A stretch of DNA of 64,000 bases, from positions 1-64,000 of IMG/VR virus record IMGVR_UViG_3300020180_000013; one strand, 5' to 3'. This document shows positions 23,638-44,382 of the stretch, one piece after another. Within the stretch, counting starts at the first letter, position 1. Each line of letters starts with the position of its first letter. The translations under genes were made by a program, and so were the position numbers. Source of the stretch: a virus. The notes beneath the pieces were generated by a model. That model saw only the letters and a list, made by a program, of their open reading frames with translations, was not told the DNA's origin and made no database searches.

Positions 23638-26600
23638 CTATTTTCTAGTCTGTATAGATTGGAAGTTCTTGATTGCCATCACTGGATCCATGGTAGTTCC
23701 TGTTATACCTACAGTTTTGGCTAAGTGATTCCAGAACTTAGCTGATTCTTCTTTCTGCCATTGATAAGGACCTACATCTCTTTTGTAATAAGCTGCTTCA
23801 TTACCTACAGCTGCATTAGTTAAATCCTGAGCCATATTAGTATAAGCTGCTATAGTAGGACCTAGCATTACTGATTTCCAGTCTAGTGCTTGAACATAGT
23901 CTTTTAAACCCAAACCTGGTATTGGTAACCATTGTTGGTTCTCAGCTCTTATCTGCATTAATAGATTAAGTGATTGATTAGATAGAAATCCAGATACTTC
24001 AAAAGGATGATTGGGATCTTCTACTCCCGGAAAAGGGAGTGCCCCTGATTTAGCCCTGAGTTTCTCATATCTGTCTTTATCATCTGAATCCCAATCAAAG
24101 AATAGATTAGCTATTAATGTCATACCTATTAGCTGACCTACTTCTACAAACATTCTAGTTACTGCTCTCTTCTCTCTTGGTGATAACCACTGAGCTCCTT
24201 TTCCTGCAGTAGAAAGAGTCTTCCAAAAAGCAGATAAAGCATCTAAATAGAATCCCCGGGTATTTTCTCCTAGACCCACATTAACTCTCTCTGGTGCCCA
24301 TCTATTAGCTGCCATAGCAGGAAGATATCTTCTCATGAAAGCAATCATTCTATAGACTAGAAATCTAGAAGCTAATGGTGAATCAAATTTAGAAAATGCA
24401 CCATTTAGATTGTTGTTTACTGTCTGAACTAGTGTTCTGAAGTCTGTATATTGTTTACCTCCTATATTCCAAGATGGATCTATCCCGGGCTTTACAGTTA
24501 ACTGACCATCTACTAATTGCCATGCATCTATATATGATATCTCTTTAGTAGAGCCATCTGGTTGAGTTTGATTGATCTTCTGATGATACATCATTCCTCC
24601 AAAAAGACCCAGAGTTGCATTTAACTCTGTCCACTTTCTTGGAGAATATAACCAGCTCATATTAACTGTATCTTTAAATAAAGATCTAGATATAGACTGG
24701 CCATATGTTTCTTGAAACCTAGTAGATGATGGATCAAATATTTCAACTAACTGAATATCTAGACTCTTAGGAGCATGCTTATATATTTCAAATGATATCT
24801 GTGAAGATACTTTTCCAGACCATGCTATACCTTGATGATAGGTAATAGGATTAAGATATCTTCCTGCAGATGCTTCTATCATATTCTGAACCATAGCTGA
24901 GAAAGAGTTCTTCAGTGCTGATGGTATATTCATAGCAAAGAATCCAAAGGCTGCTGACTTAAATAAAGTTCCAGTAGCTGCTTCTAATCCTTTGGCATCT
25001 TTAAACCAGCCGGCATTAGTCTGGCCATGGAATTCTCTTTCTATAAGAGCAGTAGCTACTTGTTCTCTAACTGATCTGCCTTTTCTTGTAATATATGTTC
25101 TAACACCTCTTTGAAGGAGATTATCTTTATTAACTTTGGTCATGTCTTTAACTCCTTGTTCAGTAAGTATAGACTGAAGGGCCTTAGCCATGGGATTCAT
25201 TTCAATCAACTTCTTTTGTCTTTCACCGGATAACATGTACCTCATCATAGATTGGGTAACATCTAATGATACCTGATCTAGATCTAGTTTATATAAACCG
25301 GCAATTGGAATACTTGATAGTTCATTATCAAACATATCAGCTTTAACCAGAGTAAACTTATCCTGCCAGTTTTGACCTTCTTCAAAGTCATCTTCAGAGT
25401 GCTTGAAATAACTTTTAACCTTATCCCACCAACTAGTAATAGCACTTCTTGCCCCATCAGGTCTTTGAAGTATCTCTAAGTTATGTAGTCTAAATCTAGG
25501 TATATCATAATATAATCTGCTACTAGATACTTTATCTGATTGAGTGACTATATGAAATTCTTTGATCTTCTCCATAGCTTTGAACAGCTTTGGATTTTCT
25601 TTCTCAAGATCAAAATAGTCTTGATTGATATATCTATTATCCGGTGCTCCTTGAGATTTAGATTTTGGTAAGAAGTTTCCTCTCTTGCCTAAGTTATCCA
25701 CAGTTTTTCCTACTATTCTAGCTGTCTTCCATTCATCCTTTACTGCTCTTGTGAAATACTTCAAAGTGGGTACTCCCTTTATTCTTTCTATAGTATTGCC
25801 GACATCATCTTTTAGATCCGTAGTCTCAATAAATCTGGTATCATTAGGTTTAACCACATTCCATATATGAAGTCTCTCCCAGGTAGGTTCTGATTCCTGA
25901 GTCTGAGGATTGTATTTGTTCTTTCTGATGTGATTTTTTTCAAACCAGGTTTTAAAATCTTCACTTTGAGAAAGTAGAGTATTGATAATATGATCTGATA
26001 TAGTTGCATCTGCAGACTTCTTATCTATGATCCTGGAACCAGTTTCTAAAAATAGAGTATTGGTATCTAATTTAGTAAGATAATTATTAAATATATCTAC
26101 ATAATAATCTGTTGCTTCTTTGTGTTGTAACTCTGCTAATTCTGCAAAGAGGGCATTTAGTTCAGCTTTCTCAAACTTATTAAGGCCCAGTCTATCTTTC
26201 TTAGATAGTAACTCATTCATTAGTTCTCTATCTTCTGGAGATAGTTTTTCACCAGTCTTAATCTTTTCAAAGAACTGACCTAGTTCATTCATCTCTAATG
26301 TAGTGAGACCACTAAATCCTGCAAAGACTTCTCTTGCTTTATTGATTTGTTCTTGTCTTTCTTTAACCAGAGCTATTCTGCCTTCTGACATAGATGATCC
26401 TTGTGGCTGACCATCCTGATCTCTAAATCCGGAGATAGCTTCATTGATATCATTCCATGCCTGAGTTATATCTACTTGGTTTTTTATATTAGAAGGAAGT
26501 TTAGCCATGATAGGCTGTATCTTATCAAAGATCTCCTTTCTTAATAAATAAAAATCTGGTTTAATAATAGTTCTGGTATTTTTATCTATCCAGTCTTGTC

Positions 26601-29361
26601 TGGTATTCTGAAACTGTAAGCTGTCTCTTGGAGTGCCTTTGTCTACTAGTTGTTGCTCAAAGTTGGCCAGTGCATTCTGAAATACCCCGGGTCTTTCTTT
26701 CCACTCATAGAAATCCCATGAGACCTCTCTGTGTTGTTTTAATATATTAACTTTCTCAAGTTCTCTACCTGATTTCTTATTTCCATTAAGATCTATTGAA
26801 GAATATAATTGTCTGTATTCTCTCCAGAGTTGGTCTAACTGTTCTGTTGCATTATACTCATCTAATTCATCATTAACAGTCTCATTTACTTCTCTGACTT
26901 TGTTTAGTAATTCTGCTCTCTCTTGTGCTGCTTCTGCTCCAATAGGACTCTCAAACAAAATCTCTCTATCATAAAATTCTTCTTTATATTCCTGATGAAA
27001 GAATTGTCTTAGATGTTTTTTGTAAGCTATTCTTAGTTCAGATAGTTTAGAATAATCTTTAGTCTTGTTAGCACTAGCTTGTTCTTTATCTATCTCATCT
27101 ACTAGTTTAGCCAACTCATACCGGTAATCTTTAAATGGATTAAGAAAAGTATAAACTTGTTTCTGAGTAAAGTTTCCTTGATCATCCTGACCACCTATGT
27201 TATCAATAAATGTAATAGACTTTCCTAGTTCAGCAACATTACTTGGATTATATCCTGCTTCTTTTAGTAAAGGCCCTACTTCTTTAACAAAGTTATTATA
27301 CTTGATCTGGGCTTTATTCTCAACCTCAGTCATATTATTTTTAACAAATAATGAAAAGCCGGCTATAATAGGATCTTTACTATAGATAGGTCCTTCAAGG
27401 AATCCATTGAATGCTGCAGCATCTCCTAATTCTCCATTTAGTAATTGCTCTAGTTTTTCTGGAGTGATCTTTACTTCCTCATATCTTTTTTTGTGACCAT
27501 CTATTACTATTTTAGATGCTCCCTTCTTTTCAAGATGAGATATCAACTCTGTATAGTTCTCATCTATCTTAGCTGCAGTATCTTTAACAGTGGTCCATAG
27601 AATATCCCTAACCCCCTTTTTATTTACGTCTTTAACTATTTTATCTCCTACATTTAGTTGAGCTTGTATAGATGTTAGTAATTTATATAATGGATTATTA
27701 ACTTCTATTCCACTTTGATTAAGTTCATTAATACCTTCAGCTGTGTATTTTTTCCAGTAGTCTATAAATTTATTATAGTAATTGATCTTATGTAAGTTGT
27801 CTACGCTATCCAAGTTCTTAGATACATTCTCAAGTTCAGTAATCATATTCTTAGCAATAAACTCTAGTCTGAATAAACTAGATGTCATATTACTCATATG
27901 AGAGTTTACATAATTGAAATCATCTTTAAGCTTTTCTATATCCTTAATTAGGGTAGTTTTATAAGTAGATAAGTTACTCTTGATTTCAGCTAACTGATTT
28001 CTACCAAACTGATCCTTCAGGATGTCTAGCATTCCCTTGTAATCTTTATTAGATATAAGACTATCTAATTGTTGAGATACTCCGGCTGATAATTTATCAG
28101 TAAGACTTTGAAGTGTTGTATCCTCTAGTTTCTTTAGAGTATCTATAAATTCTTTTTGATCTCTGGCATAAGCTGCTACATCATTTTGGTTAATAAGCTC
28201 AGTATCTATTTGGAAACTGTCGTTTACTAACATCTTTCCTAACTGATCTAGACTAGTATTAACATCTAGATTTTCTACTTTTACTTTACCAAATACTTTT
28301 CTTAGCATTTGTTTAATAGAGTAAAGAATATTCTTAATAGTATCTATAAATCCTTTTGATTCGGGAATAGAGTTTAACTGATTTTTAGCAGATAACTGAA
28401 GTGATCTTACTATAACTTCTTCTTTATATAAATCATCAGTTTTAGCTAACTCAGGATATAGATCATTTACAGTAGCTATAATAGTAGCCCCTTCTGAAGT
28501 AGTTAATACTTTATTATATAAGTTATTAAATAGTTCTGGATTTTGTTTAGATATAGCTCTAACTAAAGGATGGCCGAATTCATGGAGTACTATATCTGTA
28601 GTTAATCTATTATCAATAAAATAAACTTTAGCTCCTATATAAAATGCCGGTTCTCCATTCCAAGGAGTTCTAGCATCTTTAGTAAGCATTTCTGCTTCTT
28701 GCTCAGATATGATATGATAGTCTACACCTAACAGTGTAGCTAATCTTTGAGCTATTTTATTAGCTATTTCTACTGCCCAGGCATTGTTAACCTCTGTAGG
28801 ATCTAGTTCAATAGGATCCTTTGGAATCATAGGATCATTTTCTTCATACTCTATGGGATCACTTGAAGTAACAGGTTCCCTATAAAACATAGAAGCTTGA
28901 GTTCCTGTATTAGGTCTTTGACTTGGTACAGGTTCGGCTACTCTTTCATTTAGAACTACCTTATAGATTCTTCTTCCACCTGCTCCTGTTTTCTGTTCTG
29001 TTATTGGTTTTATCTCAGCTATCTTATAGCCATACTCTCTATAAAGTTGGTTAACTACTTTTTGAGCAGCTGCATAACCATGTTGTTTCACAAATAATAT
29101 TCCATTCTTTTTAGATATTCCTCCAGAGTCTACTAATCTTTTCTCTAGAACATTCTCTTGTTTTTGTAATACTGGCCTTGGAATAGATATACTATTGACA
29201 ACTGTAGTTCCTGTAATAGGATCTCTTTTAGCTAATACTTCTTCTGGAGTTCTGATCTCTCCATTATACTCCATAAAGTCTCTATAGGCTTCATGTTCAC
29301 CTACAACATTTACAAGATCTTTCCACTCCTTTAAATTTTTGTTAGGGCAAATTAAACTCAT
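23638..29361 (-). CDS. Giant virion cargo/ejection protein (1907 aa) with a zincin-like domain
   Basis: HEFGH with downstream EE; coiled-coil middle; hydrophobic C-terminal helices; follows the vRNAP gene as in crAss-like phages. Confidence 0.75.
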   Translation of the reverse strand: MSLICPNKNLKEWKDLVNVVGEHEAYRDFMEYNGEIRTPEEVLAKRDPITGTTVVNSISIPRPVLQKQENVLEKRLVDSGGISKKNGILFVKQHGYAAAQKVVNQLYREYGYKIAEIKPITEQKTGAGGRRIYKVVLNERVAEPVPSQRPNTGTQASMFYREPVTSSDPIEYEENDPMIPKDPIELDPTEVNNAWAVEIANKIAQRLATLLGVDYHIISEQEAEMLTKDARTPWNGEPAFYIGAKVYFIDNRLTTDIVLHEFGHPLVRAISKQNPELFNNLYNKVLTTSEGATIIATVNDLYPELAKTDDLYKEEVIVRSLQLSAKNQLNSIPESKGFIDTIKNILYSIKQMLRKVFGKVKVENLDVNTSLDQLGKMLVNDSFQIDTELINQNDVAAYARDQKEFIDTLKKLEDTTLQSLTDKLSAGVSQQLDSLISNKDYKGMLDILKDQFGRNQLAEIKSNLSTYKTTLIKDIEKLKDDFNYVNSHMSNMTSSLFRLEFIAKNMITELENVSKNLDSVDNLHKINYYNKFIDYWKKYTAEGINELNQSGIEVNNPLYKLLTSIQAQLNVGDKIVKDVNKKGVRDILWTTVKDTAAKIDENYTELISHLEKKGASKIVIDGHKKRYEEVKITPEKLEQLLNGELGDAAAFNGFLEGPIYSKDPIIAGFSLFVKNNMTEVENKAQIKYNNFVKEVGPLLKEAGYNPSNVAELGKSITFIDNIGGQDDQGNFTQKQVYTFLNPFKDYRYELAKLVDEIDKEQASANKTKDYSKLSELRIAYKKHLRQFFHQEYKEEFYDREILFESPIGAEAAQERAELLNKVREVNETVNDELDEYNATEQLDQLWREYRQLYSSIDLNGNKKSGRELEKVNILKQHREVSWDFYEWKERPGVFQNALANFEQQLVDKGTPRDSLQFQNTRQDWIDKNTRTIIKPDFYLLRKEIFDKIQPIMAKLPSNIKNQVDITQAWNDINEAISGFRDQDGQPQGSSMSEGRIALVKERQEQINKAREVFAGFSGLTTLEMNELGQFFEKIKTGEKLSPEDRELMNELLSKKDRLGLNKFEKAELNALFAELAELQHKEATDYYVDIFNNYLTKLDTNTLFLETGSRIIDKKSADATISDHIINTLLSQSEDFKTWFEKNHIRKNKYNPQTQESEPTWERLHIWNVVKPNDTRFIETTDLKDDVGNTIERIKGVPTLKYFTRAVKDEWKTARIVGKTVDNLGKRGNFLPKSKSQGAPDNRYINQDYFDLEKENPKLFKAMEKIKEFHIVTQSDKVSSSRLYYDIPRFRLHNLEILQRPDGARSAITSWWDKVKSYFKHSEDDFEEGQNWQDKFTLVKADMFDNELSSIPIAGLYKLDLDQVSLDVTQSMMRYMLSGERQKKLIEMNPMAKALQSILTEQGVKDMTKVNKDNLLQRGVRTYITRKGRSVREQVATALIEREFHGQTNAGWFKDAKGLEAATGTLFKSAAFGFFAMNIPSALKNSFSAMVQNMIEASAGRYLNPITYHQGIAWSGKVSSQISFEIYKHAPKSLDIQLVEIFDPSSTRFQETYGQSISRSLFKDTVNMSWLYSPRKWTELNATLGLFGGMMYHQKINQTQPDGSTKEISYIDAWQLVDGQLTVKPGIDPSWNIGGKQYTDFRTLVQTVNNNLNGAFSKFDSPLASRFLVYRMIAFMRRYLPAMAANRWAPERVNVGLGENTRGFYLDALSAFWKTLSTAGKGAQWLSPREKRAVTRMFVEVGQLIGMTLIANLFFDWDSDDKDRYEKLRAKSGALPFPGVEDPNHPFEVSGFLSNQSLNLLMQIRAENQQWLPIPGLGLKDYVQALDWKSVMLGPTIAAYTNMAQDLTNAAVGNEAAYYKRDVGPYQWQKEESAKFWNHLAKTVGITGTTMDPVMAIKNFQSIQTRK

Positions 29362-29364
29362 AGA

Positions 29365-29505
29365 TTAGAAATTTAAACAATATGTGCAATTAGGATTTAC
29401 TATATTTTTATTAATATGCCACCTTTTATGACATGATAGTCCACCTATTCTAGAATTTTTTTTCTTTATTTCTGGTCTTAAAGCTATTATACAATAAATT
29501 ATCAT
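29365..29505 (-). pseudogene. 46-aa zinc-finger ORF, probable internally deleted homing endonuclease remnant
   Basis: Hand translation MIIYCIIALRPEIKKKNSRIGGLSCHKRWHINKNIVNPNCTYCLNF*. Confidence 0.5.
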
Positions 29506-29515
29506 ATTATTAAAT

Positions 29516-32500
29516 TTAAAAACCAATACATCGAGACATAAACTCTGTTACTTCCTCATCAGTAACTGGTTGATCTCTTTGTACAAGTTGTCTTCCTTTC
29601 GGATTCAAAAGAAAGTTATTATTTATATATCTAAACTTCTCATATAACTGTTCTGACAAATATAAGAAAGTTTGTTGACCTGGCTTAGGTACAACCTTAC
29701 CTGGAATCTCTATTAGTGTTCCTCTTCCTGATCTTCCTATCATTCCCTGACCATATCCATTTTTATCAAATACAATATCTCTTCCTTGACTCTTAAAGTC
29801 TAATAATTGCTGAATAGCAACATCTATTAGTTTTTTATTTTCTTCAAGAGTTTGATCAGTTAATGCATTTAATACACTTGTTAAAGGAGTTTTCTCTTTA
29901 CTCTCAGCATAAGATGTTTTAGTTGGTATACCTAGAGTGAACCCTACTTGAGCCTTCTGCATAATGCCATTAGTGGTCTCAGAACTTTTCTTAGTAGCAT
30001 CAAGAGTTCTTCCATATACAAATACTGCCTCGGGATTAGAAGCTATCATATTGATCATAGATTTCTCTGAATAGTCTAATGAATGAAATTCTTTAATTCC
30101 TTCTACTCCAGTTTCTGTAATTGGTACAGTAGGAATAGTTTCCTGAGCTGATCTAACTTTAGCTTCACCTACTGTTTGACCCAGAGTTTGTTGAACAACA
30201 TAGTTCTTATGTCTAAAGCTATTTTTAGAGGTATTAAGAAGTATAAACTTTTTATAAAATAGATCTAGTAATACATTATTCATATTCTCTGAATACACCT
30301 TAACTGGTTCCTCCATTATTCTAGTAAACATATCTACCGGTACAAATGAAGTAAGAGCATATTTACCTTTAGCTGATAAGCCTGATTGCATAAAAGCATA
30401 TACTGGGAATCTCTTGAAGAAATTGCTTATCCTTTCATTCTCTACTGGATCAGTAGACTTTATAACAGATACATTAGATAGGTTTAATATATTCTCATGA
30501 AGAGTATTTAATTTATCTCCATCTAGATTTGAGTCTAAACTATAAAGATTTCTTATTCCTTGTTTAGCTATTGAAGTAGCAAGAACTCTGAAAAGTAAAT
30601 ACTCATTTTTTAAATCAGGATGTGTATCTATAATACTATTATACTCATCAGCATAGCTAGTATCACTATAGAACATCTTCCAGGAATTGAACGTATTATC
30701 TAAAGCCTGATTTCTTAAGAATTGCTCATATGATATTTTCTTTAATCTCTTCTCAAATTCTTCGTGAGTTTCATCTATAAGCTTAGTTATCTTTTTATCA
30801 GTAATATTAGTAGATAATAGTTTTATATAATCTGCATTGGTCTTTACTTTATCTGAAGTATACATACTTCTTAAGTATTCTCTTTCAAATACAAAAGACT
30901 GGTATTCTTTAGATGTAGAGAATGCATTAACATTAACTACAGCTAATCCTGTTTTAGGATCATACTCTGTTATATGATCTTTGAGATTTGAAATACCGGA
31001 CCAAGCTTTAGTAGAGAAGTCTTTTTGAAGCTGGGCTTTATCTACATAGATAACATTATTTTTAACAAAGACTCCGTTCTTAAGACTCTTTACAGATTCA
31101 ACTGGGATACTAGTATCAACATTAAATCCTTTGTATTCTTTAATATTATTAAGATTAAATGCTTTTACACTATTCTGGAATATAAAACTAACTAAGTCAT
31201 TTTTGAATTCAGATACAAATTTCTCAGGATCATCAAATGTATTCTCTACATCATCTGATATACCTTCTCTAAACTTATTAACAATAAAGTTTTCTACTAC
31301 TTTATTATTTCTAAGATTAAATAAAGGATTCCATAGATTGATCATGAACTCCTGTATATTGAAAGAACCTATTGGAGAATTAGTAAGAATATTATTTACT
31401 ATAGAAGTAGGTATCTTACCATCTGCTTTTAGTTGCTCTACTTGTAATTGTCTATTATGGGCCTCAAAAAGTGTAGTTGATCTCTTAGTATCAAAGTTCA
31501 TTCTAAGCTTAATATCTCTAATAGATCTTGACATATCTTCTAGTTCTAGATAATGTAAGAATGCTGCTTGTTCTTCTTCTGTTACAATATGATCAGCTCC
31601 TATTTTAGTCTGTGCTGAATAGGCTCCTATATTATTCTTCAGAGTGTTGAAATCAAAAGCTGAATCTTTATATTTAGATGTCATCTCCCGGGTCAAGTTA
31701 TAAATATTCTGATCCATTGCTTTTCCTCTCAACATAGATTGAGTGAGATTAAAATCAAATCTTGGATCAAGTAATACTGTCTCTTTAGCTTTTCTCCTAT
31801 AAAAATTAGGATGGAAAGGGGCCTTATCTAATGGATCTGCAAAAGTAGATTTAGCTAATCTTTGTTGAGTAACATATTCTCTAACCAATGGCTGGGATAC
31901 AAAGTATACTGCATGCTCAAAAGGAACACCGGCCTGGATTAAAAATAAAAGAACTGGTGCTACTTCTTTATTACCTTGGATATTAAATATCCATGCATCT
32001 TTAGCCACATCTACCCAGCCATTAATCAACTGAGATATAACATCTGATATTCTATATTGACCATTTGAGTCTAATATATTACCTAATGATATAGCAGGTT
32101 TTCCGGAAACATCAATAGTGTTATGAGGAAGGTATATATTAAGTGGTCTCTCTTGTAATTTACCATTAGGCATTTTCTTTTCATAGCTAGGGTTAAGATG
32201 AGCTCCTATTCTATTAAACACAACATTATAAGAGTTATCAACTGCTCCTAAACCTAATGTCTGTTTACCTACGTTATTAGACTGATGTTTATAAAGATTG
32301 TATTCTTGTTCTAGTACTCTAGTTCCAGATACCTGAGACTCATTACCTGGGTGTACTCTGGATTTAGGATTATAATCTTGTACCTGATCTTGTAATATAT
32401 CAGCAACTGGTTTTACTATATCAGTATTATTTGGCCTGACTAGATTAGTAAAGTTCTGTGGCAGTTCTAAGATCTCTCTCATATTCTGAAGAAGATCATT

Positions 32501-35500: not shown

Positions 35501-38500
35501 ATTAGTTACTGAGAAATTAGAGTACTGGTCTGAGTATCTAGTCTCTAATTCCATTAGTCTTTTCCAATTACCGGCCTCTCCTCTAAGTTCTTGAATATTG
35601 CCCATAGCTGGCTGCTGTAGTTTAAATACATCAGATACTTTGGTTATAGTAAGTCCTCTACTTTGAATGTTAGCAAGAACTGCTCTTATAATATTAGCTT
35701 TACCTATATCATTAGCTATTCCTTGTTTAATCTCTTTCTTGTCAGATAACTGTACTCCTATTGCTTTAAAGAACTTGAATGCATTTTCTTTAATAGTATT
35801 AGCTGGGAAGTCCTTCAAGATGGTTGGAATATCCAGGTAGTTTATATTATTAGTGTCTTTCTTTATATATGGATTAGCATATGTAATTTGAAATAAATTA
35901 TCCCATGCCTGGCCGGCTTTTTTGTAATCAGTAGAGGACTGGCCTATTTTTGAAATATAAGTAGAAGTCCCATCTTCATTTGTGACTTTATCAAGAGTCA
36001 TCTGAATTAAAGGAATCCTGGTTTTGTTAAATGCATTCCAGAAGTCAGTCCACATTTTAAACTCAGGCCCAGATATAGTATCAGATGATCCTAGTTTAGA
36101 TAATAGTTGTTTGAATACAGGAAAAGTCTCAGCTTCAGATTTGAGTCTTTTCTCCATCACTTCTGGAGAAGAGCTTCCTTCTAAAACTTTAGCTAATCTA
36201 TTCCATACTACATCAAACTCAGCTAATTGATTAACTCCTAGTTTATTCTTTTTAGTATTACCAGAGTTATCTATAGCATTAAGAGATCTAATTAAATATA
36301 ATACTTGGTTAGAAGCTAGATCAGTAAGAGAAGTTTCATTACCGTTCTTGTTATAACCTTCTCGTCCCTTAGATGCATCTTCATTTTCTTCTGGAGCTAC
36401 ATCTTCAAACTTATCTTCAAGAGATAAGTATTTTGATTTAAGATTATGATAGTTTATTAATCCTTTTCCATTTTCTACTCCTATTGGTTTTTCAGGATCT
36501 CCAAAGTTTCTAATAGCATAATCTAAAAGATTAATATTCTTCTGGATTTGTTCTTTAAGGAACTGATCAGTAGTTTGATCAAGACTAGATTGAAGATCAT
36601 TTCTTATATGAGCTAGCCTGGTTCTGGAGTATTTATAAGCTGTAGATCTATTATTACTACTAGTTACAATAGTAGAAGTAAATCTATTAGTTAAGTCTTT
36701 AGTATTTTTAAGATCTATTAGTTCTGAAAAAAGAGAATCTATAGTATCTACTAGTAGTCTAGAATCTTCATATGATAAAGACTGAAGAGGCTCTTCAGAA
36801 GAAATAGCTTCTAATCCTTTATTAAGGATATTAAAATTTATATTATCTCCGGAGAAAGTGAATTTATGAAGATCTCCTATTCTTAATTTTTCATATAGAT
36901 CATTTATAGTAGAAATAGCATTTTGATTTATAGCTAACTGAGCTACTGTACTATTTCCAAAAAGTGCTTTAAGAAAGTTTAATATCTTTCTAAATAGAGT
37001 ATTTCTTACTGGAGTAGTTAATTTCTTTCCATCAGATAACATATAGTTTCTGAAGTCTTCAGCTAAGTATTCTTCTAGCTCTATATTAGAAGCTGATTTG
37101 AAAGAAATATTTTTTCCTTGATAAGTAGTAAATTTTCCGGACTTATTTCTTAGCTCATTATATACTTCTTGTTTTTGGTCTTTAGTTAAAAAGCCTTGAG
37201 TGAATGCATGCCATGCCTCATGATAAAGATCACTATAGTCTGCTCCTTTGTATAAAGTGATTCCATTTACTGTCCAGGTAGCTACTGCATTAGGATTGGC
37301 AGCATTAATCATATTAAACATTACTTCAAAAGGGAAGTGTTTAGATAATGGAGAAGAGTTATACCAAGATCTGGCCTCAGTTATTTGTTCTTCTGTGGCT
37401 TTTTTATTGATCTCTTTTTGACCGGTAGTTTTCTCAAGAGTAGCTAATAAATCATCTATATCTTTCTGTCTTTGATCTGCAACTGATGATTCTACTATTT
37501 TAGCTGGAGTAACTTCTGGTTTTACTTCTATAGTCTCTTTAGGATTAAGTTTTTCTATTTCACTATCAAGAGGAGAATAATTAAAGTATCCATTAAGAGT
37601 TACTATTTTTCCTTGTTCATTTATAGGAATATTAATTACTGTATGCTCTCCTAAAAAGTCTTTATAGTTTTTATCTGTTGGAATAAGCCGGGTATTTTCC
37701 CCTTCTATAGAAAGAGTAAAGTCCTGGAAGTCTTCCATCCTGGATAAGAATTTTCTATTAATATTTATCTGAGCCCCTACCCATTTAGTATAGATGTCTT
37801 TACCATTAGTATCTACTGTCTTTACTATAGCTCCTTGATATAATTCTTTCTCCCACTCAGGTTGAGTTCCGTCAATGATCTTTCCTGTAGGTCTGGTGAC
37901 TATTTCACTAGGAGATATTCTAGTTAAGTAATCTATTATAGTTTTATTAGCAAGATCTTTATCAGATAGATCCAATGGCACTCCTTTTATAGTTATCTCA
38001 AGATTCTGTCCATCTTCAGATACCTGAATATTCATTCCTTTGTCAGTTGTCTGAATATAGTTTTTAGCATAGTTTAATTTCTCATATGGAGAAAGTGATA
38101 CATCTTCTCCAGAAGGAGCTTTTGCTGTAATATCATTTACTAATAATGATGATACTTTAGTAGCTAGTTCTGCAGTAAACTGTCTTCTCTGTAAATGAAT
38201 AGGAGTTTCTATCCCGGGATAATAAAAGTACACAGCCGTCTTATAAAAGGGCCCTGTATTATCTTCCTGGAATATAGGTTGAAAAGGATGTTCTATTTCA
38301 AATAGTAACTTAGAGAATGCTTGAGGAGCTTTTCTATTCTCCTGAACTAGTCCTTTACTTCCTCCTGTTATAGTACTTCTGATAGTATTATTCTCAGGAT
38401 CTTTCTTTATATACTCTCTGATTTTATGTATTTGTTCTGTTTGATCATCCTGAATCTTCTTAGCTTCAGTAGCAGTTACTTCTCTATTTAGTATTTTAGA

Positions 38501-39451
38501 AAGTGATTTAGCTGCCTGCTCTGGAGTCTGAATACTTTTAGGATCAGTAAGTGTTCCTTTATCATCAGTTGCCCTCATCATATAATATGATGGTTTTGCT
38601 GATTGATCATAAGAAACTTCTCCGACCTCATTAAAACTAATAGGATTGCCTTCTATATCAGTAAGGGTTAATACTACACCTAGTTTATTATGTTTGTGAA
38701 GTCTAGTTTGTTTTTCTTCTTCGGAGATCCCTGGTTCATTTAACCAAGCTTTTGTTTCTTCATATACTTGATCTATAGGAATTTTACTAGCTGACATTGC
38801 AGTTAGATATACTCCACCTTGTCTTGTTCCTGGAATATCTAATTTAGAACTATCACCATTAACTAGTGGAGTATATAATTTATCCAGAATAGATCTTAGA
38901 GTATTATAATATAATTTCTTAGTTGGATCAGGAGTACTGGTCCATGTTTTAACACCGGTCTCAGAATCTATAGTTATGATAGCCTCTTGGCCAGTAGTAG
39001 TTAACGGCTGATTAGGTTTAGCCTTTTCTCTTTGTTGTTCTAGAGACTTATCTTTTATTTCTTTAGGAATAATAGTATCTGGAGTCTTATTTGCAATCTC
39101 TTGAATACTTTTGATTTGATCTATAATATCTTTATTTAGATCTAAGTATTCAATAGTTTTATCGAAGTTTTTAAAGGTATCTTCAAGATCAACTATCTCA
39201 GGATATGCATTCTTAATCAGAGTTCTTATTTCTTTACTTCTACTTTGAGCTTCTATTATAGAAATAGGAATCATCTGTACATAGTTAATAGCAAGACTAT
39301 GACTTTTAGTTTGGTTATATACAACAGAATAAATTCCTTTTGAATAACTTTTAATATCAAAAGGAATATTCTTATTAGCCTGGTTTAATAAATCTGAAGT
39401 TACTTTCTTATAAAGTTTTTCTATTTGCTCTTTTCTTAAAGGACATGCCAT
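29516..39451 (-). CDS. Virion-packaged single-chain double-psi-barrel RNA polymerase polyprotein (3311 aa)
   Basis: Catalytic loop GSDFDIDKL (about 32820-32843), RIPVQG, TGDAQGW, VDVAKD; N-terminal zincin HEAWH...EEYLAE. Confidence 0.92.
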   Translation of the reverse strand: MACPLRKEQIEKLYKKVTSDLLNQANKNIPFDIKSYSKGIYSVVYNQTKSHSLAINYVQMIPISIIEAQSRSKEIRTLIKNAYPEIVDLEDTFKNFDKTIEYLDLNKDIIDQIKSIQEIANKTPDTIIPKEIKDKSLEQQREKAKPNQPLTTTGQEAIITIDSETGVKTWTSTPDPTKKLYYNTLRSILDKLYTPLVNGDSSKLDIPGTRQGGVYLTAMSASKIPIDQVYEETKAWLNEPGISEEEKQTRLHKHNKLGVVLTLTDIEGNPISFNEVGEVSYDQSAKPSYYMMRATDDKGTLTDPKSIQTPEQAAKSLSKILNREVTATEAKKIQDDQTEQIHKIREYIKKDPENNTIRSTITGGSKGLVQENRKAPQAFSKLLFEIEHPFQPIFQEDNTGPFYKTAVYFYYPGIETPIHLQRRQFTAELATKVSSLLVNDITAKAPSGEDVSLSPYEKLNYAKNYIQTTDKGMNIQVSEDGQNLEITIKGVPLDLSDKDLANKTIIDYLTRISPSEIVTRPTGKIIDGTQPEWEKELYQGAIVKTVDTNGKDIYTKWVGAQININRKFLSRMEDFQDFTLSIEGENTRLIPTDKNYKDFLGEHTVINIPINEQGKIVTLNGYFNYSPLDSEIEKLNPKETIEVKPEVTPAKIVESSVADQRQKDIDDLLATLEKTTGQKEINKKATEEQITEARSWYNSSPLSKHFPFEVMFNMINAANPNAVATWTVNGITLYKGADYSDLYHEAWHAFTQGFLTKDQKQEVYNELRNKSGKFTTYQGKNISFKSASNIELEEYLAEDFRNYMLSDGKKLTTPVRNTLFRKILNFLKALFGNSTVAQLAINQNAISTINDLYEKLRIGDLHKFTFSGDNINFNILNKGLEAISSEEPLQSLSYEDSRLLVDTIDSLFSELIDLKNTKDLTNRFTSTIVTSSNNRSTAYKYSRTRLAHIRNDLQSSLDQTTDQFLKEQIQKNINLLDYAIRNFGDPEKPIGVENGKGLINYHNLKSKYLSLEDKFEDVAPEENEDASKGREGYNKNGNETSLTDLASNQVLYLIRSLNAIDNSGNTKKNKLGVNQLAEFDVVWNRLAKVLEGSSSPEVMEKRLKSEAETFPVFKQLLSKLGSSDTISGPEFKMWTDFWNAFNKTRIPLIQMTLDKVTNEDGTSTYISKIGQSSTDYKKAGQAWDNLFQITYANPYIKKDTNNINYLDIPTILKDFPANTIKENAFKFFKAIGVQLSDKKEIKQGIANDIGKANIIRAVLANIQSRGLTITKVSDVFKLQQPAMGNIQELRGEAGNWKRLMELETRYSDQYSNFSVTNAEGNAQFEHSLNSTLTQMINTINSVKSFDELIALPHMNHLDTERNPYTKSSIWITSLFDMNSPGRPKRKDAKLNLENLSGVQLTIDNEEGTGIASASADEFTKFLMDFHMMIMRGTPELMRAADKGTSLMINLNKLLAPGNKSGKLYIDTEEIIANKTKAIQNLTNIVINYVGSELSRINTMENASELNPIRNVSDYYNRGKEFVLFDDVLSSETKSKLKKLDLPLDTYLKNNTPRAIELRKDLETDITKYFNSLVKSTNDRYTKTKFVANNLITSIKEEANNTNYKAQVLKASSADIVQGALTSFVINQWIHNVETMNFLYGDIALYNMGKEEFHKRNAGAISTGTIYRSDESALRYLNEVIGFGYANSKGIAQDPFQSILNSAVLEDTHTLSVYHDQYKKAIESEIKDRYSKRKDFISGKISKEDLDKEISKAIESALKPYTEMNTGDAQGWITFDSYRAVKTLDNSWTPKQEELYQKIIKGESTRPSEVSRFFPVQKLQYFGPLHTEGLPTIGFHKFSVFPLIPSVIKGTNLEKLHDKLVTENVHYALFKSGSKVSTITKQGVTDPFYSNEQAKVISQEKLTKNPIFIEYLKNQLETASTFKESSIFPTQLRKLIEDGLYENGKPVNDKVEKLVKNYEDNIRKLTEVKKKELLREAGWILDKNGNPKGDLKPLLKFVRKELTRQDLADHQIDFIDIKGNTNQIKHDLSISLSADKIERLLTAIVNKRLIRQKVNGEALIQVSGAGFENLSAFDTNRNLTNPTEGDLKKWGSNDLPTYHQGPDGKTRAMKVKIAMQGQFEKLLQLDEVRDRAYSKSISTTEALNELLKDEPWLNTGTNRQMITMIGVRIPVQGLNSMEFMEIYEFLPKEAGNIIVPPDEIVAKSGSDFDIDKLTVMMPNFRKNEDGKITLTTQYSQKQARTIYEKVKAKRIALEELKDDKGNIIWTNDAIVDKFLTDVFGDLWSRDYTHEELEEILKPYNLHTFEDFYETLNGSKAVENDLLQNMREILELPQNFTNLVRPNNTDIVKPVADILQDQVQDYNPKSRVHPGNESQVSGTRVLEQEYNLYKHQSNNVGKQTLGLGAVDNSYNVVFNRIGAHLNPSYEKKMPNGKLQERPLNIYLPHNTIDVSGKPAISLGNILDSNGQYRISDVISQLINGWVDVAKDAWIFNIQGNKEVAPVLLFLIQAGVPFEHAVYFVSQPLVREYVTQQRLAKSTFADPLDKAPFHPNFYRRKAKETVLLDPRFDFNLTQSMLRGKAMDQNIYNLTREMTSKYKDSAFDFNTLKNNIGAYSAQTKIGADHIVTEEEQAAFLHYLELEDMSRSIRDIKLRMNFDTKRSTTLFEAHNRQLQVEQLKADGKIPTSIVNNILTNSPIGSFNIQEFMINLWNPLFNLRNNKVVENFIVNKFREGISDDVENTFDDPEKFVSEFKNDLVSFIFQNSVKAFNLNNIKEYKGFNVDTSIPVESVKSLKNGVFVKNNVIYVDKAQLQKDFSTKAWSGISNLKDHITEYDPKTGLAVVNVNAFSTSKEYQSFVFEREYLRSMYTSDKVKTNADYIKLLSTNITDKKITKLIDETHEEFEKRLKKISYEQFLRNQALDNTFNSWKMFYSDTSYADEYNSIIDTHPDLKNEYLLFRVLATSIAKQGIRNLYSLDSNLDGDKLNTLHENILNLSNVSVIKSTDPVENERISNFFKRFPVYAFMQSGLSAKGKYALTSFVPVDMFTRIMEEPVKVYSENMNNVLLDLFYKKFILLNTSKNSFRHKNYVVQQTLGQTVGEAKVRSAQETIPTVPITETGVEGIKEFHSLDYSEKSMINMIASNPEAVFVYGRTLDATKKSSETTNGIMQKAQVGFTLGIPTKTSYAESKEKTPLTSVLNALTDQTLEENKKLIDVAIQQLLDFKSQGRDIVFDKNGYGQGMIGRSGRGTLIEIPGKVVPKPGQQTFLYLSEQLYEKFRYINNNFLLNPKGRQLVQRDQPVTDEEVTEFMSRCIGF

Positions 39452-39468
39452 AGGATAATATTTATTAA

Positions 39469-42400
39469 TTATTCACCACAACCAAGATCTGATAAAAACT
39501 CTTCATCATTTTCTTCTTTAGATTTTTTAGTAGCCTCATCATGGAGTCTATCTACTTCAGATTTATCTTTAAGTAAATCTTCTTCAGCTTTTACATTACT
39601 CTTCATCTGAGTTTTATCTTCAGTAGTAAGATCCGGTGTTAAATCTGCTTCTTCCATTCCTTCATTATATTTAAACTCTATTTCTGATATGGGCTCATAA
39701 TATACTGTGGCCCCATTTTCTCCATATCTTACTACTTTAATAGTGTCTTTAGTCTTTCCTACTACTTCACCCAGACCAGTTTTTCCATATCTGGATTTGT
39801 CTTTCATGACTAGGATTTCTCCATCTTTTATATCATCAAAATTAATAGATAAAGCTAACTCTTTCTTTTTATCTTCTATCATTTGGTTAATAAGTTCCCC
39901 TGATAAATTCTGAGCTTTTCTAATAGCCGGAGTAGATAGATCTTCTATTAATTCTCCTTCTAATAATTCTAATTGCTCCATAGTAGTTACATCTTTAAAC
40001 CTAGCTTCTAGTGATCTAGTTGGTACAGGAGCAGCTACTATAACTTCTAGTTCAGGCTCTATAATTGGAATAGCTGCTTCTTTAGGTTTAAGCTCTGCTG
40101 CTATTTTATCTATTTCAGCAAACTTAGATTTATAGATTGCATTTTCTCCTTCAGAGAGTTTCTCATTATTGTTTATTTTCTGAGCTATACTATTCATCCT
40201 CTCTGGGGTGACTATTACTTTCTCCTGGAAGTCTAATATTTCTTCATCTCCAACTACTTCAGGAACTGCTTGTATAACCTGAGTAGGTTTTACCGGTTCT
40301 TCTAGAGTAACTACTTCTTCTGGAACTCTACCTGTTCTAGTATTGAACTCATCTAATATCTTATGTGCAGAAGGAAATCCTATGATCCAGTTTTTAAATC
40401 TTAAACTCTTTGCTATTTGATCATCTGATAAAGTAGCTAGATTTTCTTGTTCTTCTGGTACTAACTTACTATTCTGATCTCTATAAGTGGATATAAGAGT
40501 AGCTCTTAGATCTTCTGGTAGTTGATTAATTGGGGTGGCTATAGTAATACTTGCTGGTCCAGTAGTTATAGTCTCTCCTCCAGGAGTAACAGTAACGTTA
40601 GTAGTATCTATTTTAGTAGTAATAAGACTAATTACCTGATCTAGTAATGTACTATCTGTAGATACTTTAAATAATCTTTGAAAGAATTTTTTTACTGAAT
40701 TTAGATAATCAGTCCAGGTTGATTTCTGAGTAACTTCATGAGGAATTTCTTTTAGGAAACTCTGGAAAGTATCATTACTTATAGCTTCAGCTGCAAATTC
40801 TTTTTCACTTGAAAGACCATTTAAAGGAGCTTCTCCATATTTGGATTTAGCTTCTTCTGTAGTAGAATACTGCCTTGCTCTTTCTAGAAGAGAAGTAATA
40901 TCACTCTTAAATTGAGGATCAGTATCTATTCCTTCTGTAGTATATTTATGAATTAGTTGATGTAAGATAACATGCTCTATAGGATTGTTACCTGATTTAT
41001 AATCTACTGAACTATATCTGGCATCTATAACTATTCCTGTTTCAGGATTATAACTACCAGGAGAAACTGAGTCTTTCCTAAAGAGGATAACTTCTTCTGG
41101 TTTAGTAATAGATAATAATCTTCTAGCTAAAGCTTTCTCTCTAAGAGTTGAGTATTTACCGGTGATTATATTTCTGAGTACTCTTGTTGATATAACTTTT
41201 GATTCAGTATCTGCTGAGTTAAACCCATATTCTTTGGCATAATCTTCATAGGTTCTCTGGTCTCCTTTAAATTTTCTTCTAGCAAATGATTCATATCCTG
41301 GAGTAGTATCCTGTGTTTCCGGTATTGGTTTCTCCGTATATTGCTTTCCAGTTGCTTTTTCAAACTGTTCAATAAGATTAAGGATCTGCTTACCTTTTTC
41401 TGAATTAAGTGGAATTTCTCCATGAGGGCTTGTAACACTATAGAATTTAGTTGGAAGTTTATTTGTATCAGTTAGTGATTCTATTTCTTTAGAATCAAAG
41501 AATGCTCCTAGTTTATATAGTTCATTTAAGAACTCATTGTACTCAGATTTCTTAATAAATTCTTCAAGACCTTCTCTTAAATAGTTTATTCTATTATTGC
41601 TAGCTACTGTAGCAGCTTCAACTGCTCTTGAGTGAGCTTCTCTAAATGTCTCCGGATTAGTTAAGAAGTTTACTGCACTGGCTAATCGTACAGAATCTTC
41701 ATTGAGTTCATAGAAATCTTTAAGCTTTCTGAAAGCGTTATTTACATCTTCATCTAATATATGATCATCAGATAGATTAGCTATTGTTTTTATGTATTTA
41801 GAATAAGAGTCATAAAGTAATTTAGCATGTTCTGCAGAAGCTAGGTCTTCTTCTTGCTCTGGGGTAGCACTAGTTGATCTTGCTTTAATAGCAGCTTGGA
41901 ATCCTATTATATCAAGTTTAAGGGCTATAAGAGATTCTAGTATAGCTTCTTTCTTTTTGGCTATTGCTTTATCTCCGGCAGTAGTTGATTGTGTATAAGT
42001 GGGGATCTCAAGTTTAAGTGAATCAATCTCATCTTGAATCTGAGTAGGATCAAATAAAAGAGTAAACGCAGATGAAGAGGCTTTAGCTAAAAGCTTACTC
42101 TTTACTGCATCTTGAGTAATATCAGTCATTCTATCTAGAGTTCTATCAAAACTATATCTAGAAAACAAAGCCATTTTCTTAAGCTCATCAAAAGCTTCTC
42201 TAGCATGATACTCTTGTATCTTAGCTGTAGGATCTTTTACTTTAGATGGATCAAATGAATTAACCATTTTCTTTTCTATGACATCAAATCTATTTCTAAG
42301 ATAATCTACTTTATCAGTAAAACTATCTAGTTTTTGTGCATAAGATGTATCATTTGTCCCTGGCTTTTCTCCAAAGGCTTCTGATAACTCTGCAGGAGAC

Positions 42401-44382
42401 ATCTCTTTTAAAGACTTAATCTGATCAGTCAGAGAATTGGTTTGTCCGGATTTAAGAAGAGTGTATATATGAATAAATACACTTTCATCTATAGAGTTTT
42501 CAAAAGCTTTCTGATCATTATCTTCTATAGCCTGGTCAACATGAGCATTAGATTTCTTTTGAAGAACAAAGTTCTTATCTATTAAGCTAATAGCTTTAAC
42601 ATATTTAGCAGGATCTTTCATTGTGTCAATGATAGCCTCAGTAACAGAATTTATATATTCTTGTTTGGCCTTACTATAACTAGCATATCCTTTAGGATCA
42701 AATATCTTTTTAGTAAGTGTTGGTATTCCCTCAAACATTGCTTTCTGTGGGCCTTGGAGAATCCCTCCCATTAAAAATCCAGATAAGAAAGTATTTAGTC
42801 CTTGTCCTGATAACTGAGTATCCAGACTTGCAGAAAAAGAGCTCTTTAAACTAGCTAGGTCCGGATCTTTATAATCTTGCTCATAGTAACTTTTAAATGC
42901 TTGGGATATAACATCCTGAGATGTTTCTTGCAACCCTTCTGTTAAGTTAGCTACAGTATATCTTAGTGATCCTTTAAGTAAGTTACCTGGTCTAAATACA
43001 TTTTTTATTCCCGGTAAAGAGTACTTATCAACAAACCTGGCTGTTTTAGATAGAGGATCTTTTACTAGAATCTTACCAGCTAGGGCTCCTTCAGCTTCTT
43101 CTACAAGAAATCTTTGAACTGGTTTGAATCCTCTAAGAGCATTCTTAAATACTATCTTGTTAGAGAAATATATAAGTGGGATATTAGCTAGTGTTGTAGC
43201 AAATCCTGCAGCTTTAGATTGTTCATATATTTTGTTTGCTTCATCTCCTTCAGGAAGTCTGCCATCATTCTGCTCATAAAAATCATTTACTAATTTCTCA
43301 TTTAGATCTATCTGTGCTGATCCTCCTTCTAGTTTCGACTCTGAAGTAACTGCATTGATCTCCCGGATATCTCTATACAGAGATCCTACTCCTTTACTCA
43401 TTTTAGCAAAGTTGGATAGGTTCTTTAATTCACTGAGACTTCCAACAAATTCTGCAGTTCTGCTTAATGGATTAGCCCACTTGGCTACACCTAAAGCTGT
43501 CTGACCAGCATTAGCCCAACTAAATAATTGTCTGGCTTTATTTACTGAATCAATAGAAGATAGAGCTTTCCTAATATTATTCATTGCAGTAAAACCTTCA
43601 CTTAATCTTCTTGGAAGAGAAGTTATATTAGACACTAATCTACCTCCTGTAAGAGGAGCTGCTCCACTGTCTGTAGCTACTGTAATAGCTAGTAGACCTA
43701 ATTCTTCTAAAGCTATTTCACCAATTATACCTGCACTGTAAGCTGTAGTAGCTCCAAAATTTGTGATCCATCCTGCTGCTCCTTCTCTAGAAGATGACAT
43801 ATTAGCCATCCTCTTATTCATATCTTCGGAGTGAACCAAATCAGAGTCTAATCCATTGTCATACCACTCACTAAACGTATCTTTAACTCCTAGACCTGCC
43901 ATTCCTAACCAACCTGAAGCCATCCTACCAAAATCTGCAAATCCTGAAGTATTCTCATTGTATACTTTTTCATTATCTCTAAAGGGAGAGAAGCCTAATT
44001 TCTTGAATCCTGAGTGAGAATAGTATCTATCAAAATTCATATTTCTATAACCTGCTCCATAAGAGAAGGTCTTACCATAACCATATTTGTCATTGGCCCA
44101 TGAATCTGCTTGCTTGAGATACTGAGCTGCATTTTTAGCAAAGTCTACTGCAGGTGAGGTCTTAACAGAGGGTGCGGGTCCTGTATTGAAGTCTCCAATA
44201 ATACTGGAGTTAATATCAGTATTTATAGGATAGGCTGTCTGGTGGGCTCTATTAAAATTGGCTTGCTGATCTTTGGCTTGTCTTGCTTCTAGTTCTCTTT
44301 CTCCTGAAGTTTTACCAAAAACTTTCTGACCCTCTGTGAGTTCCTCACCAGGTTGAGTAGGGAGTGTTTGTTCTTCTGCCAT
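39469..44382 (-). CDS. Giant virion cargo protein (1637 aa) with amphipathic N-terminal helices and a degenerate zincin
   Basis: TEGLQETSQ motif, Gly/Ala-rich helices, HQLIH...EFAAEA. Confidence 0.75.
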   Translation of the reverse strand: MAEEQTLPTQPGEELTEGQKVFGKTSGERELEARQAKDQQANFNRAHQTAYPINTDINSSIIGDFNTGPAPSVKTSPAVDFAKNAAQYLKQADSWANDKYGYGKTFSYGAGYRNMNFDRYYSHSGFKKLGFSPFRDNEKVYNENTSGFADFGRMASGWLGMAGLGVKDTFSEWYDNGLDSDLVHSEDMNKRMANMSSSREGAAGWITNFGATTAYSAGIIGEIALEELGLLAITVATDSGAAPLTGGRLVSNITSLPRRLSEGFTAMNNIRKALSSIDSVNKARQLFSWANAGQTALGVAKWANPLSRTAEFVGSLSELKNLSNFAKMSKGVGSLYRDIREINAVTSESKLEGGSAQIDLNEKLVNDFYEQNDGRLPEGDEANKIYEQSKAAGFATTLANIPLIYFSNKIVFKNALRGFKPVQRFLVEEAEGALAGKILVKDPLSKTARFVDKYSLPGIKNVFRPGNLLKGSLRYTVANLTEGLQETSQDVISQAFKSYYEQDYKDPDLASLKSSFSASLDTQLSGQGLNTFLSGFLMGGILQGPQKAMFEGIPTLTKKIFDPKGYASYSKAKQEYINSVTEAIIDTMKDPAKYVKAISLIDKNFVLQKKSNAHVDQAIEDNDQKAFENSIDESVFIHIYTLLKSGQTNSLTDQIKSLKEMSPAELSEAFGEKPGTNDTSYAQKLDSFTDKVDYLRNRFDVIEKKMVNSFDPSKVKDPTAKIQEYHAREAFDELKKMALFSRYSFDRTLDRMTDITQDAVKSKLLAKASSSAFTLLFDPTQIQDEIDSLKLEIPTYTQSTTAGDKAIAKKKEAILESLIALKLDIIGFQAAIKARSTSATPEQEEDLASAEHAKLLYDSYSKYIKTIANLSDDHILDEDVNNAFRKLKDFYELNEDSVRLASAVNFLTNPETFREAHSRAVEAATVASNNRINYLREGLEEFIKKSEYNEFLNELYKLGAFFDSKEIESLTDTNKLPTKFYSVTSPHGEIPLNSEKGKQILNLIEQFEKATGKQYTEKPIPETQDTTPGYESFARRKFKGDQRTYEDYAKEYGFNSADTESKVISTRVLRNIITGKYSTLREKALARRLLSITKPEEVILFRKDSVSPGSYNPETGIVIDARYSSVDYKSGNNPIEHVILHQLIHKYTTEGIDTDPQFKSDITSLLERARQYSTTEEAKSKYGEAPLNGLSSEKEFAAEAISNDTFQSFLKEIPHEVTQKSTWTDYLNSVKKFFQRLFKVSTDSTLLDQVISLITTKIDTTNVTVTPGGETITTGPASITIATPINQLPEDLRATLISTYRDQNSKLVPEEQENLATLSDDQIAKSLRFKNWIIGFPSAHKILDEFNTRTGRVPEEVVTLEEPVKPTQVIQAVPEVVGDEEILDFQEKVIVTPERMNSIAQKINNNEKLSEGENAIYKSKFAEIDKIAAELKPKEAAIPIIEPELEVIVAAPVPTRSLEARFKDVTTMEQLELLEGELIEDLSTPAIRKAQNLSGELINQMIEDKKKELALSINFDDIKDGEILVMKDKSRYGKTGLGEVVGKTKDTIKVVRYGENGATVYYEPISEIEFKYNEGMEEADLTPDLTTEDKTQMKSNVKAEEDLLKDKSEVDRLHDEATKKSKEENDEEFLSDLGCGE

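Follow-up and report, generated by a model that had tools for sequence, protein, structure and literature searches.

The closest described relatives of the proteins considered here are the cargo proteins of cultured crassviruses. In crAss001, gp47, gp49 and gp50 were detected in the virion by mass spectrometry, and the tail channel contains constrictions of < 50 Å (PMC10172136). The subunit masses of these three proteins are 262.5, 154.5 and 276.9 kDa, respectively. The phi14:2 orthologues of these three are also virion proteins by mass spectrometry. How the crassvirus cargo, including its RNA polymerase, is delivered via the narrow tail is an open question according to both the crAss001 atlas (PMC10172136) and a 2026 paper on N4. 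The cysteines (Cys) of the trio are discussed neither in the crAss001 atlas (PMC10172136) nor in the phi14:2 preprint, and a full-text literature search found no paper on the Cys of crassvirus cargo proteins. In the ejection proteins of Schitoviridae (N4-like phages), Cys makes up 0.00075%, a suppression ascribed to capsid exit and envelope passage (PMC11445570). In the cyanopodophage A4 (A-4L), cryo-electron microscopy revealed a disulfide between Cys1715 of gp27 and Cys5 of gp26 in the pre-ejectosome (PNAS 2025, PMC12002296), and the bond was described as stabilizing the five-fold pre-ejectosome, rather than as an instance of a general rule or as part of a multi-protein chain (PMC12002296). 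Here we analyzed the first 64,000 nucleotides (nt) of the uncultured IMG/VR viral record IMGVR_UViG_3300020180_000013 (the window; the whole record has 96,195 bases and is estimated to be 81% complete). Three consecutive giant open reading frames (ORFs) on its minus strand, encoding proteins A, B and C, contained only four Cys, one at each end that faces a neighboring protein of the trio, and probably form a chain linked head to tail through these residues.

By translation, the trio contained 4 Cys in 6855 residues, and the Cys of B were limited to Cys3 (MACP) and Cys3308 (RCIGF). The genes and the Cys codons were as follows.

39469-44382, minus strand: cargo protein A, 1637 amino acids (aa), 182.5 kDa, sole Cys at 1635, orthologue of crAss001 gp47
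39478-39480, minus strand: TGT codon of A Cys1635, third residue from the C-terminus (LGCGE)
29516-39451, minus strand: protein B, the virion RNA polymerase (vRNAP), 3311 aa, 376.7 kDa, orthologue of phi14:2 gp66 and crAss001 gp50
39443-39445, minus strand: TGT codon of B Cys3 (MACP)
29528-29530, minus strand: TGT codon of B Cys3308 (RCIGF), fourth residue from the C-terminus
23638-29361, minus strand: cargo protein C, 1907 aa, 218.5 kDa, sole Cys at 5, orthologue of crAss001 gp49 and phi14:2 gp65
29347-29349, minus strand: TGC codon of C Cys5 (MSLICP)

The start sites of A, B and C are nearly forced, because in-frame stops lie 8, 8 and 2 codons 5' of the respective ATGs with no start codon in between; the next in-frame ATG of each was located 30-115 residues downstream of the assigned start. 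The Cys content of the other ORFs in the window was 0.5-6.3%. For four surviving Cys placed randomly along the 6855 positions, the probability that every one of the four junction-facing 5-residue segments receives one is ~7e-12. An earlier note on this DNA had given the count and positions of the four Cys exactly, and re-translation of A, B and C revealed no extra internal Cys. Its codon coordinate for A Cys1635 was correct when the codon was checked, and the chain mass, which it had put at roughly 770 kDa, was computed as 777.6 kDa for A, B and C combined.

Searches of A, B and C against Pfam and PHROGs gave almost no matches, and orthology was established with profile hidden Markov models (HMMs) built from database homologues of the three proteins. 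The HMM of A matched crAss001 gp47 (E 2.8e-12), that of B matched crAss001 gp50 (E 4e-29) and phi14:2 g066 (E 5.1e-41), and that of C matched crAss001 gp49 (E 4.8e-31) and phi14:2 g065 (E 8e-26). Residues ~1740-2550 of B matched the polymerase of crAss001 and, with a tblastn E value of 3e-31, the catalytic RNA polymerase subunit (g066) of the Cellulophaga phage phi14:2. The following motifs were located in B and C.

32819-32842, minus strand: GSDFDIDK, the catalytic DFDxD motif of two-barrel RNA polymerases, B residues 2204-2211
37202-37228, minus strand: LYHEAWHAF, an HExxH zincin-like motif in the N-terminal part of B, residues 742-750, with H744, E745 and H748 invariant
28564-28590, minus strand: VLHEFGHPL, an HExxH zincin-like motif in C, residues 258-266 (HExxH at 260-264), invariant

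When 20 diverse B sequences were aligned, D2206, F2207, D2208 and D2210 were invariant, and C3 and C3308 were invariant alongside these catalytic residues. The DFDID motif and the homology to phi14:2 gp66 bear out the earlier assignment of B as the vRNAP. A zincin domain has been published for the gp65/C family only, and the HExxH motif in the N-terminal part of B in the clade of the window may represent a second protease-like module. The minus-strand ORFs upstream of the trio matched virion structural PHROGs, on the same strand and in the same order, and the cargo block lies at the end of this virion structural module. Because of the HMM orthology and the structural genes upstream, A, B and C are identified from their sequences as the RNA polymerase cargo block of a divergent crAss-like phage, and they are most likely packed and injected by the phage.

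The terminal Cys were conserved across the family. Among the best 120 B homologues from the protein database (31-57% identity), an N-terminal Cys at position 3-9 was present in 113 and a C-terminal Cys in the last 7 residues in 119, while 84 had no other Cys. A lone Cys, situated in the last 1-11 residues, was present in each A homologue (23/23). Cys at position 2-9 was found in 41 of the 43 C homologues, as the sole Cys in 33, and C5 was invariant in the alignment. A survey of 75 related IMG/VR loci with 10-kb flanks, restricted to complete ORFs, gave the following counts.

Protein A: N-terminal Cys in 0/51, C-terminal Cys in 51/51, 2 internal Cys in 101,332 residues
Protein B: N-terminal Cys in 57/58, C-terminal Cys in 58/58, 8 internal Cys in 219,884 residues
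Protein C: N-terminal Cys in 62/62, C-terminal Cys in 0/62, 6 internal Cys in 123,963 residues

Internal Cys amounted to 0.002-0.005% in A, B and C versus 1.15% in unrelated ORFs of the same 75 loci, and the outer ends, namely the N-terminus of the first protein and the C-terminus of the last, never carried Cys in these loci. At locus L035 (7386-26531), a single B-family ORF of 6381 aa had its Cys limited to residue 5 and the last residue; the extra length of this protein corresponds to modules that occur in other loci as independent genes or within C. Over the N-terminal 120 residues, the mean column identity of 53 C-position proteins was 12%, and the only invariant columns were Met1 and the Cys. 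The N-terminal Cys of C is therefore, as judged from the alignment, retained even where the domain around it has been replaced.

The pattern of the trio was also kept in orthologues at ~23% identity from phi14:2, crAss001, crAss002 and Fpv1, as listed below (negative numbers count from the C-terminus), and the rule held in p-crAssphage as well.

phi14:2: g067 (A), sole Cys is the last residue; g066 (B), Cys3 and Cys at -2 only; g065 (C), Cys3 only
crAss001: gp47 (A), Cys at -3 only; gp50 (B), Cys5, Cys at -9 and one internal; gp49 (C), Cys5 only
crAss002: gp32 (A), Cys at -2 only; gp33, a B-C fusion, Met33-Ser-Cys35
Fpv1: gp33, an A-B fusion, Cys at -2 only; gp34 (C), Cys3 and one internal

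In crAss001, gp47 is encoded on the opposite strand from gp50-gp49 and its C-terminal Cys is still present. The earlier note held that the pattern follows gene order; the terminal pattern stands, and what it tracks is the identity of the partner rather than gene order as such. In crAss002 gp33, a Met-Ser-Cys sequence matching the canonical N-terminus of the family was found 32 codons downstream of the annotated start (L085, 12785-12890), and the deposited start is probably too far upstream, with Met33 being the true one. Two proteins of p-crAssphage (L002) outside the A/B/C trio also had terminal Cys, gp47 (857 aa) a single one at -2 and gp48 (264 aa) one at -6, and no obvious N-terminal partner was seen for them.

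Fusions and splits of the cargo genes changed the Cys in a paired manner. A-B fusions were found in locus L062 (4665 aa, single Cys at -5), cr118_1 (gp14, 4946 aa), cr4_1 (gp26), cr108_1 (gp054 + gp053) and Fpv1 (gp33, 4401 aa). In the A-B fusions, the C-terminal Cys of A and the N-terminal Cys of B were both absent, the C-terminal Cys remained, and the next protein kept its N-terminal Cys. In the B-C fusion of p-crAssphage (gp44, 4070 aa), Cys3 was present and the C-terminal Cys absent, and A (gp45) retained its Cys at -2. The polymerase of cr108_1 was annotated as two coding sequences, with the break inside the catalytic SDFDIDK and a gap of ~290 nt (L079, 18509-18800); this break in the active-site codons looks like an intron or other insertion.

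The opposite change was observed at five loci with an extra middle gene between B and C (L018, 583 aa; L037, 655 aa; L038, 396 aa; L067, 506 aa; L073, 468 aa). Each of these middle proteins contained exactly two Cys, one per end, and none matched Pfam. Four of the five (L018, L037, L038 and L073) aligned in an end-anchored way with part of an unsplit B or C elsewhere: the L018 protein with residues 1-563 of C from L054 (41% identity, E 7e-117), the L038 protein with residues 1-349 of C from L064 (48%, E 5e-92), the L037 protein with residues 3401-3851 of B from L010 (48%, E 4e-127) as well as with the extreme C-terminus of other B proteins, and the L073 protein with the extreme C-terminus of several long B proteins (E 1e-22). 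The L067 protein matched only internal stretches, in B of L041 (E 9e-22) and C of L043 (E 8e-9), and was not end-anchored. No Cys was present at the equivalent point of the unsplit homologues. The number of terminal Cys thus shifted by exactly two, one per side, at each junction made or removed, and the chains observed had 2, 4 or 6 terminal Cys. The Crassvirales orthologues, whose Cys the earlier note had proposed to count and position, therefore show terminal Cys that are conserved and that track fusions and splits.

The paired gain and loss, together with the bare outer ends, is what mutual head-to-tail pairing would predict, and the topology in which A pairs with B and B with C is strongly supported by this comparative evidence. 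The disulfide chemistry of the junctions is supported by analogy. The terminal-Cys signature has been validated once by structure, in A4, and several intersubunit disulfides were reported in the tail and portal vertex of crAss001 virions (PMC10172136), so that disulfides do form in crassvirus particles. From the comparison of sequences and these analogies, we consider it probable that head-to-tail disulfide links A-B and B-C join the cargo into one chain. The Cys-bearing ends are flexible tails outside the fold and the active site, since in the crystal of phi14:2 gp66, obtained with dithiothreitol (DTT) and tris(2-carboxyethyl)phosphine, all residues were ordered save a few at both termini; the enzyme was active in DTT. 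The earlier note had offered disulfides or shared metal sites for the junctions: head-to-tail pairing of the terminal Cys gains support from the conservation, the fusions, the splits and the A4 precedent, and a single metal site shared by four Cys is rejected, since some chains carry 2 terminal Cys and others 6.

According to the proposed mechanism, the C-terminus of A, both ends of B and the N-terminus of C would each present one Cys on a short flexible tail facing the partner. Once docked at these ends, the three proteins would be locked by one A-B and one B-C intermolecular disulfide after the particle exits the reducing cytoplasm, giving an unbranched chain of ~778 kDa as the topological equivalent of the single fused polypeptide of relatives. 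Only end-to-end links and very short loops would pass the narrow tail channel in unfolded form, and because crosslinks would have to traverse this channel, internal Cys would be purged and the linking Cys confined near the termini. The surviving non-terminal Cys of the cargo were close pairs (C128/C131 in the window, C390/C398 in crAss001 gp45, C369/C378 in phi14:2 g069 and C1036/C1039 in A4 gp28), which fit the short-loop limit since their crosslinks, too, would have to pass the channel. After entry, the reducing cytoplasm of the host would cut the disulfides and free the subunits. The more speculative part of this mechanism is that the cargo would be ejected as a single towed thread and freed by reduction.

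The charges of the paired ends offered soft further evidence, at the level of sequence, for adjacency at the A-B junction. In data uncorrected for phylogeny, the net charge of the A tail was anticorrelated with that of the B N-terminal tail over 39-45 sequence clusters (Spearman -0.5 to -0.6), and the A-tail/B-head correlation was -0.37 to -0.49 over 24 clusters. The correlation was absent, likewise uncorrected for phylogeny, for the non-adjacent ends (A tail/C head, B head/B tail and others).

Several points weigh against the disulfide chain. The charge trend at the B-C junction was weak and non-significant. Depletion of internal Cys is not absolute, as several are tolerated in some gut lineages (7 in p-crAssphage gp44 and ~9 in gp056 of IAS virus); IAS virus was excluded as evidence, with ambiguous bases near the gp055/gp056 junction and unreliable gene calls. 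The cargo is unresolved in the crAss001 map (PMC10172136), and no bond between cargo proteins has been directly observed in a crassvirus. Virions are assembled in a reducing cytoplasm and the gut hosts are anaerobic, so an oxidant acting after release is needed. A thioredoxin was not found in the 96-kb record (~81% complete), and a search of the record for Erv1/ALR carries no weight, as the family matched no control genome. The sequences alone fit a staple that stabilizes the packed cargo as well as a chain that tows it, and cannot separate the two.

Among the alternatives, disulfides of another topology would have B closed on itself (Cys3-Cys3308) with A paired to C, or same-terminus homodimers of two copies. 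Partners are not fixed by sequence alone, and the A4 precedent, which involves two proteins, would suit an A-C pair equally well. Such arrangements are nevertheless improbable. The Cys that survive in fusions (C-terminus of B with N-terminus of C, or C-terminus of A with N-terminus of B) would have to swap partners each time, and charge anticorrelation was seen for A tail/B head and not for A tail/C head or B head/B tail. Homodimers would leave the bare N-terminus of the first and the bare C-terminus of the last protein unexplained, while threading would be poor for a closed loop of 3311 residues.

Bridging of the terminal thiolates by a metal ion (Zn, Fe or Cu), either pairwise or in one cluster of four ends, draws on the fact that Cys is a common metal ligand and that His often precedes the C-terminal Cys of B in relatives (e.g. 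HCF). Yet each end offers a single Cys within otherwise unconserved flanks, the termini were disordered in the gp66 crystal, and the only solved case of the signature, A4, is a disulfide; we regard metal bridges as having little likelihood. It is also improbable that the terminal Cys individually bind some other partner, such as a DNA end or a protein of the portal, capsid interior or tail, or that they carry a covalent modification. The structural proteins of crAss001 are rich in disulfides, so a free partner Cys could exist in the shell, but splits and fusions changed the Cys two at a time, one per junction side, which would require a new docking site for each split, and the Cys-free outer ends would be left unexplained. 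The absence of any linking role, in which Cys were purged from ejected proteins and the survivors are tolerated at the ends or serve as a nucleotide junction signal, can be dismissed as extremely improbable, being contradicted by the conservation and by the fusions and splits: Schitoviridae do offer an established case of ejected proteins with suppressed Cys (PMC11445570), but tolerance would predict scattered, variable survivors instead of an invariant Cys at four ends down to ~23% identity with none at the outer ends, and N4-like proteins are essentially Cys-free. A DNA-level junction motif was itself rejected, as the distance between paired Cys codons was 8-1335 nt with 22-30 distinct values, both TGT and TGC were used, and crAss001 gp47 lies on the strand opposite to gp50-gp49.

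Beyond the head-to-tail chain of the trio, it is possible, and we propose it tentatively, that Cys at both module ends act as a general coupling device across Crassvirales, convergent in cyanopodophages, by which any module so tipped could be inserted into a disulfide 'train' that would be injected as one thread and uncoupled by the reducing cytoplasm of the host.

The genes and the spacer surrounding the trio contained the following features.

44382-47297, minus strand: 971-aa Cys-poor protein adjoining A upstream, with a close pair, C128 and C131, as its sole Cys
46899-46922, minus strand: the C128/C131 pair of this protein
47391-49625, minus strand: 744-aa protein without Cys, a further cargo protein by position
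51619-52266, minus strand: 215-aa homing endonuclease of GIY-YIG/HNH type (PHROG 314, E 3.6e-28)
29362-29515: intergenic spacer between B and C, 154 nt

The 971-aa protein is by its position a further cargo protein, and it is not a member of the chain because it has no terminal Cys. Its relatives (~1000 aa, N-terminus MA[ST]Y[IL].G; in L006, L008, L027 and others) had either zero Cys or a close C128/C134 pair, and the close pair in this family may form a short-loop disulfide or a small metal site compatible with threading. With the 744-aa protein, the 971-aa protein, A, B and C, five Cys-poor proteins stand in a row, and crAss001 virions also have five cargo proteins. The homing endonuclease is flanked by the structural gene of a 1680-aa muzzle-like protein and by the structural gene that follows, and it probably entered the tail module as a mobile insertion. 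The B-C spacer is long compared with the family median of ~2 nt, and a scan of these 154 nt for promoters and terminators found nothing above chance. B-C gaps of 350-1300 nt were seen in other loci and may hold small inserted genes.

Crassviruses are the most abundant human gut phages, and each has ~0.7-0.8 MDa of cargo protein to deliver. If the chain exists, both the order and the stoichiometry of ejection would be set by a covalent end-to-end tether, which would also explain the near-total purge of internal Cys. The tether would connect three arrangements, namely the split three-gene layout, the fused polyproteins of relatives and the one-chain polymerase of N4, and would supply a redox switch through which the cargo could be released or activated in the host. 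If terminal Cys are indeed a general coupling device, splits, fusions and module insertions would be nearly neutral, and the extreme turnover of modules in these giant proteins would be accounted for. As an aid to annotation, the sequence rule marks true starts (e.g. that of crAss002 gp33) and picks out chain members among proteins of unknown function.

The trio of the window is shared with the cultured crassviruses phi14:2 (gp67-gp66-gp65) and crAss001 (gp47-gp50-gp49), which have the orthologous proteins, DFDxD in B and the same terminal-Cys pattern. The identity between the window's proteins and theirs is only ~23%, and B of the window differs in being ~1000 aa longer and in carrying HExxH in its N-terminal part. 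The junctions of the window resemble the gp27-gp26 junction of A4, as these are consecutive ejection proteins with the upstream Cys near the C-terminus and the downstream Cys near the N-terminus. In the A-4L genome, the sole Cys of gp27 (1717 aa) lies at -3 and that of gp26 (1114 aa) at 5, and the neighboring gp28 has only a close CxxC pair; Pf-WMP3, at 23% identity to A-4L, keeps the gp27/gp26 layout. The HMMs of A, B and C gave no match to A-4L gp25-gp29 at E up to 1. Because no homology is detectable, the A4 signature is, as far as sequence comparison goes, convergent with that of crassviruses, an analogy and not a membership. A4 also differs in having one bond and no RNA polymerase in the linked pair. 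The earlier note had thought the linkage undescribed, which holds for Crassvirales in the searchable literature and does not hold in general, as A4 is a published one-bond precedent; what is new is the proposed multi-protein chain that includes the polymerase, its order-wide conservation and its behavior at splits and fusions. N4-like phages share with the window a giant ejected polymerase and the suppression of Cys, and their single 3500-aa chain would be the functional counterpart of linked A-B-C. The trio is distinct from the N4 gp50 type, which is Cys-free with a single T7-like polymerase: the N4-like enzyme is one polypeptide, whereas the window has a two-barrel DFDxD enzyme, three polypeptides and four conserved terminal Cys. 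Because its polymerase is one polypeptide, the N4-like system needs no linker Cys, which fits the idea that a split cargo alone requires linker Cys.

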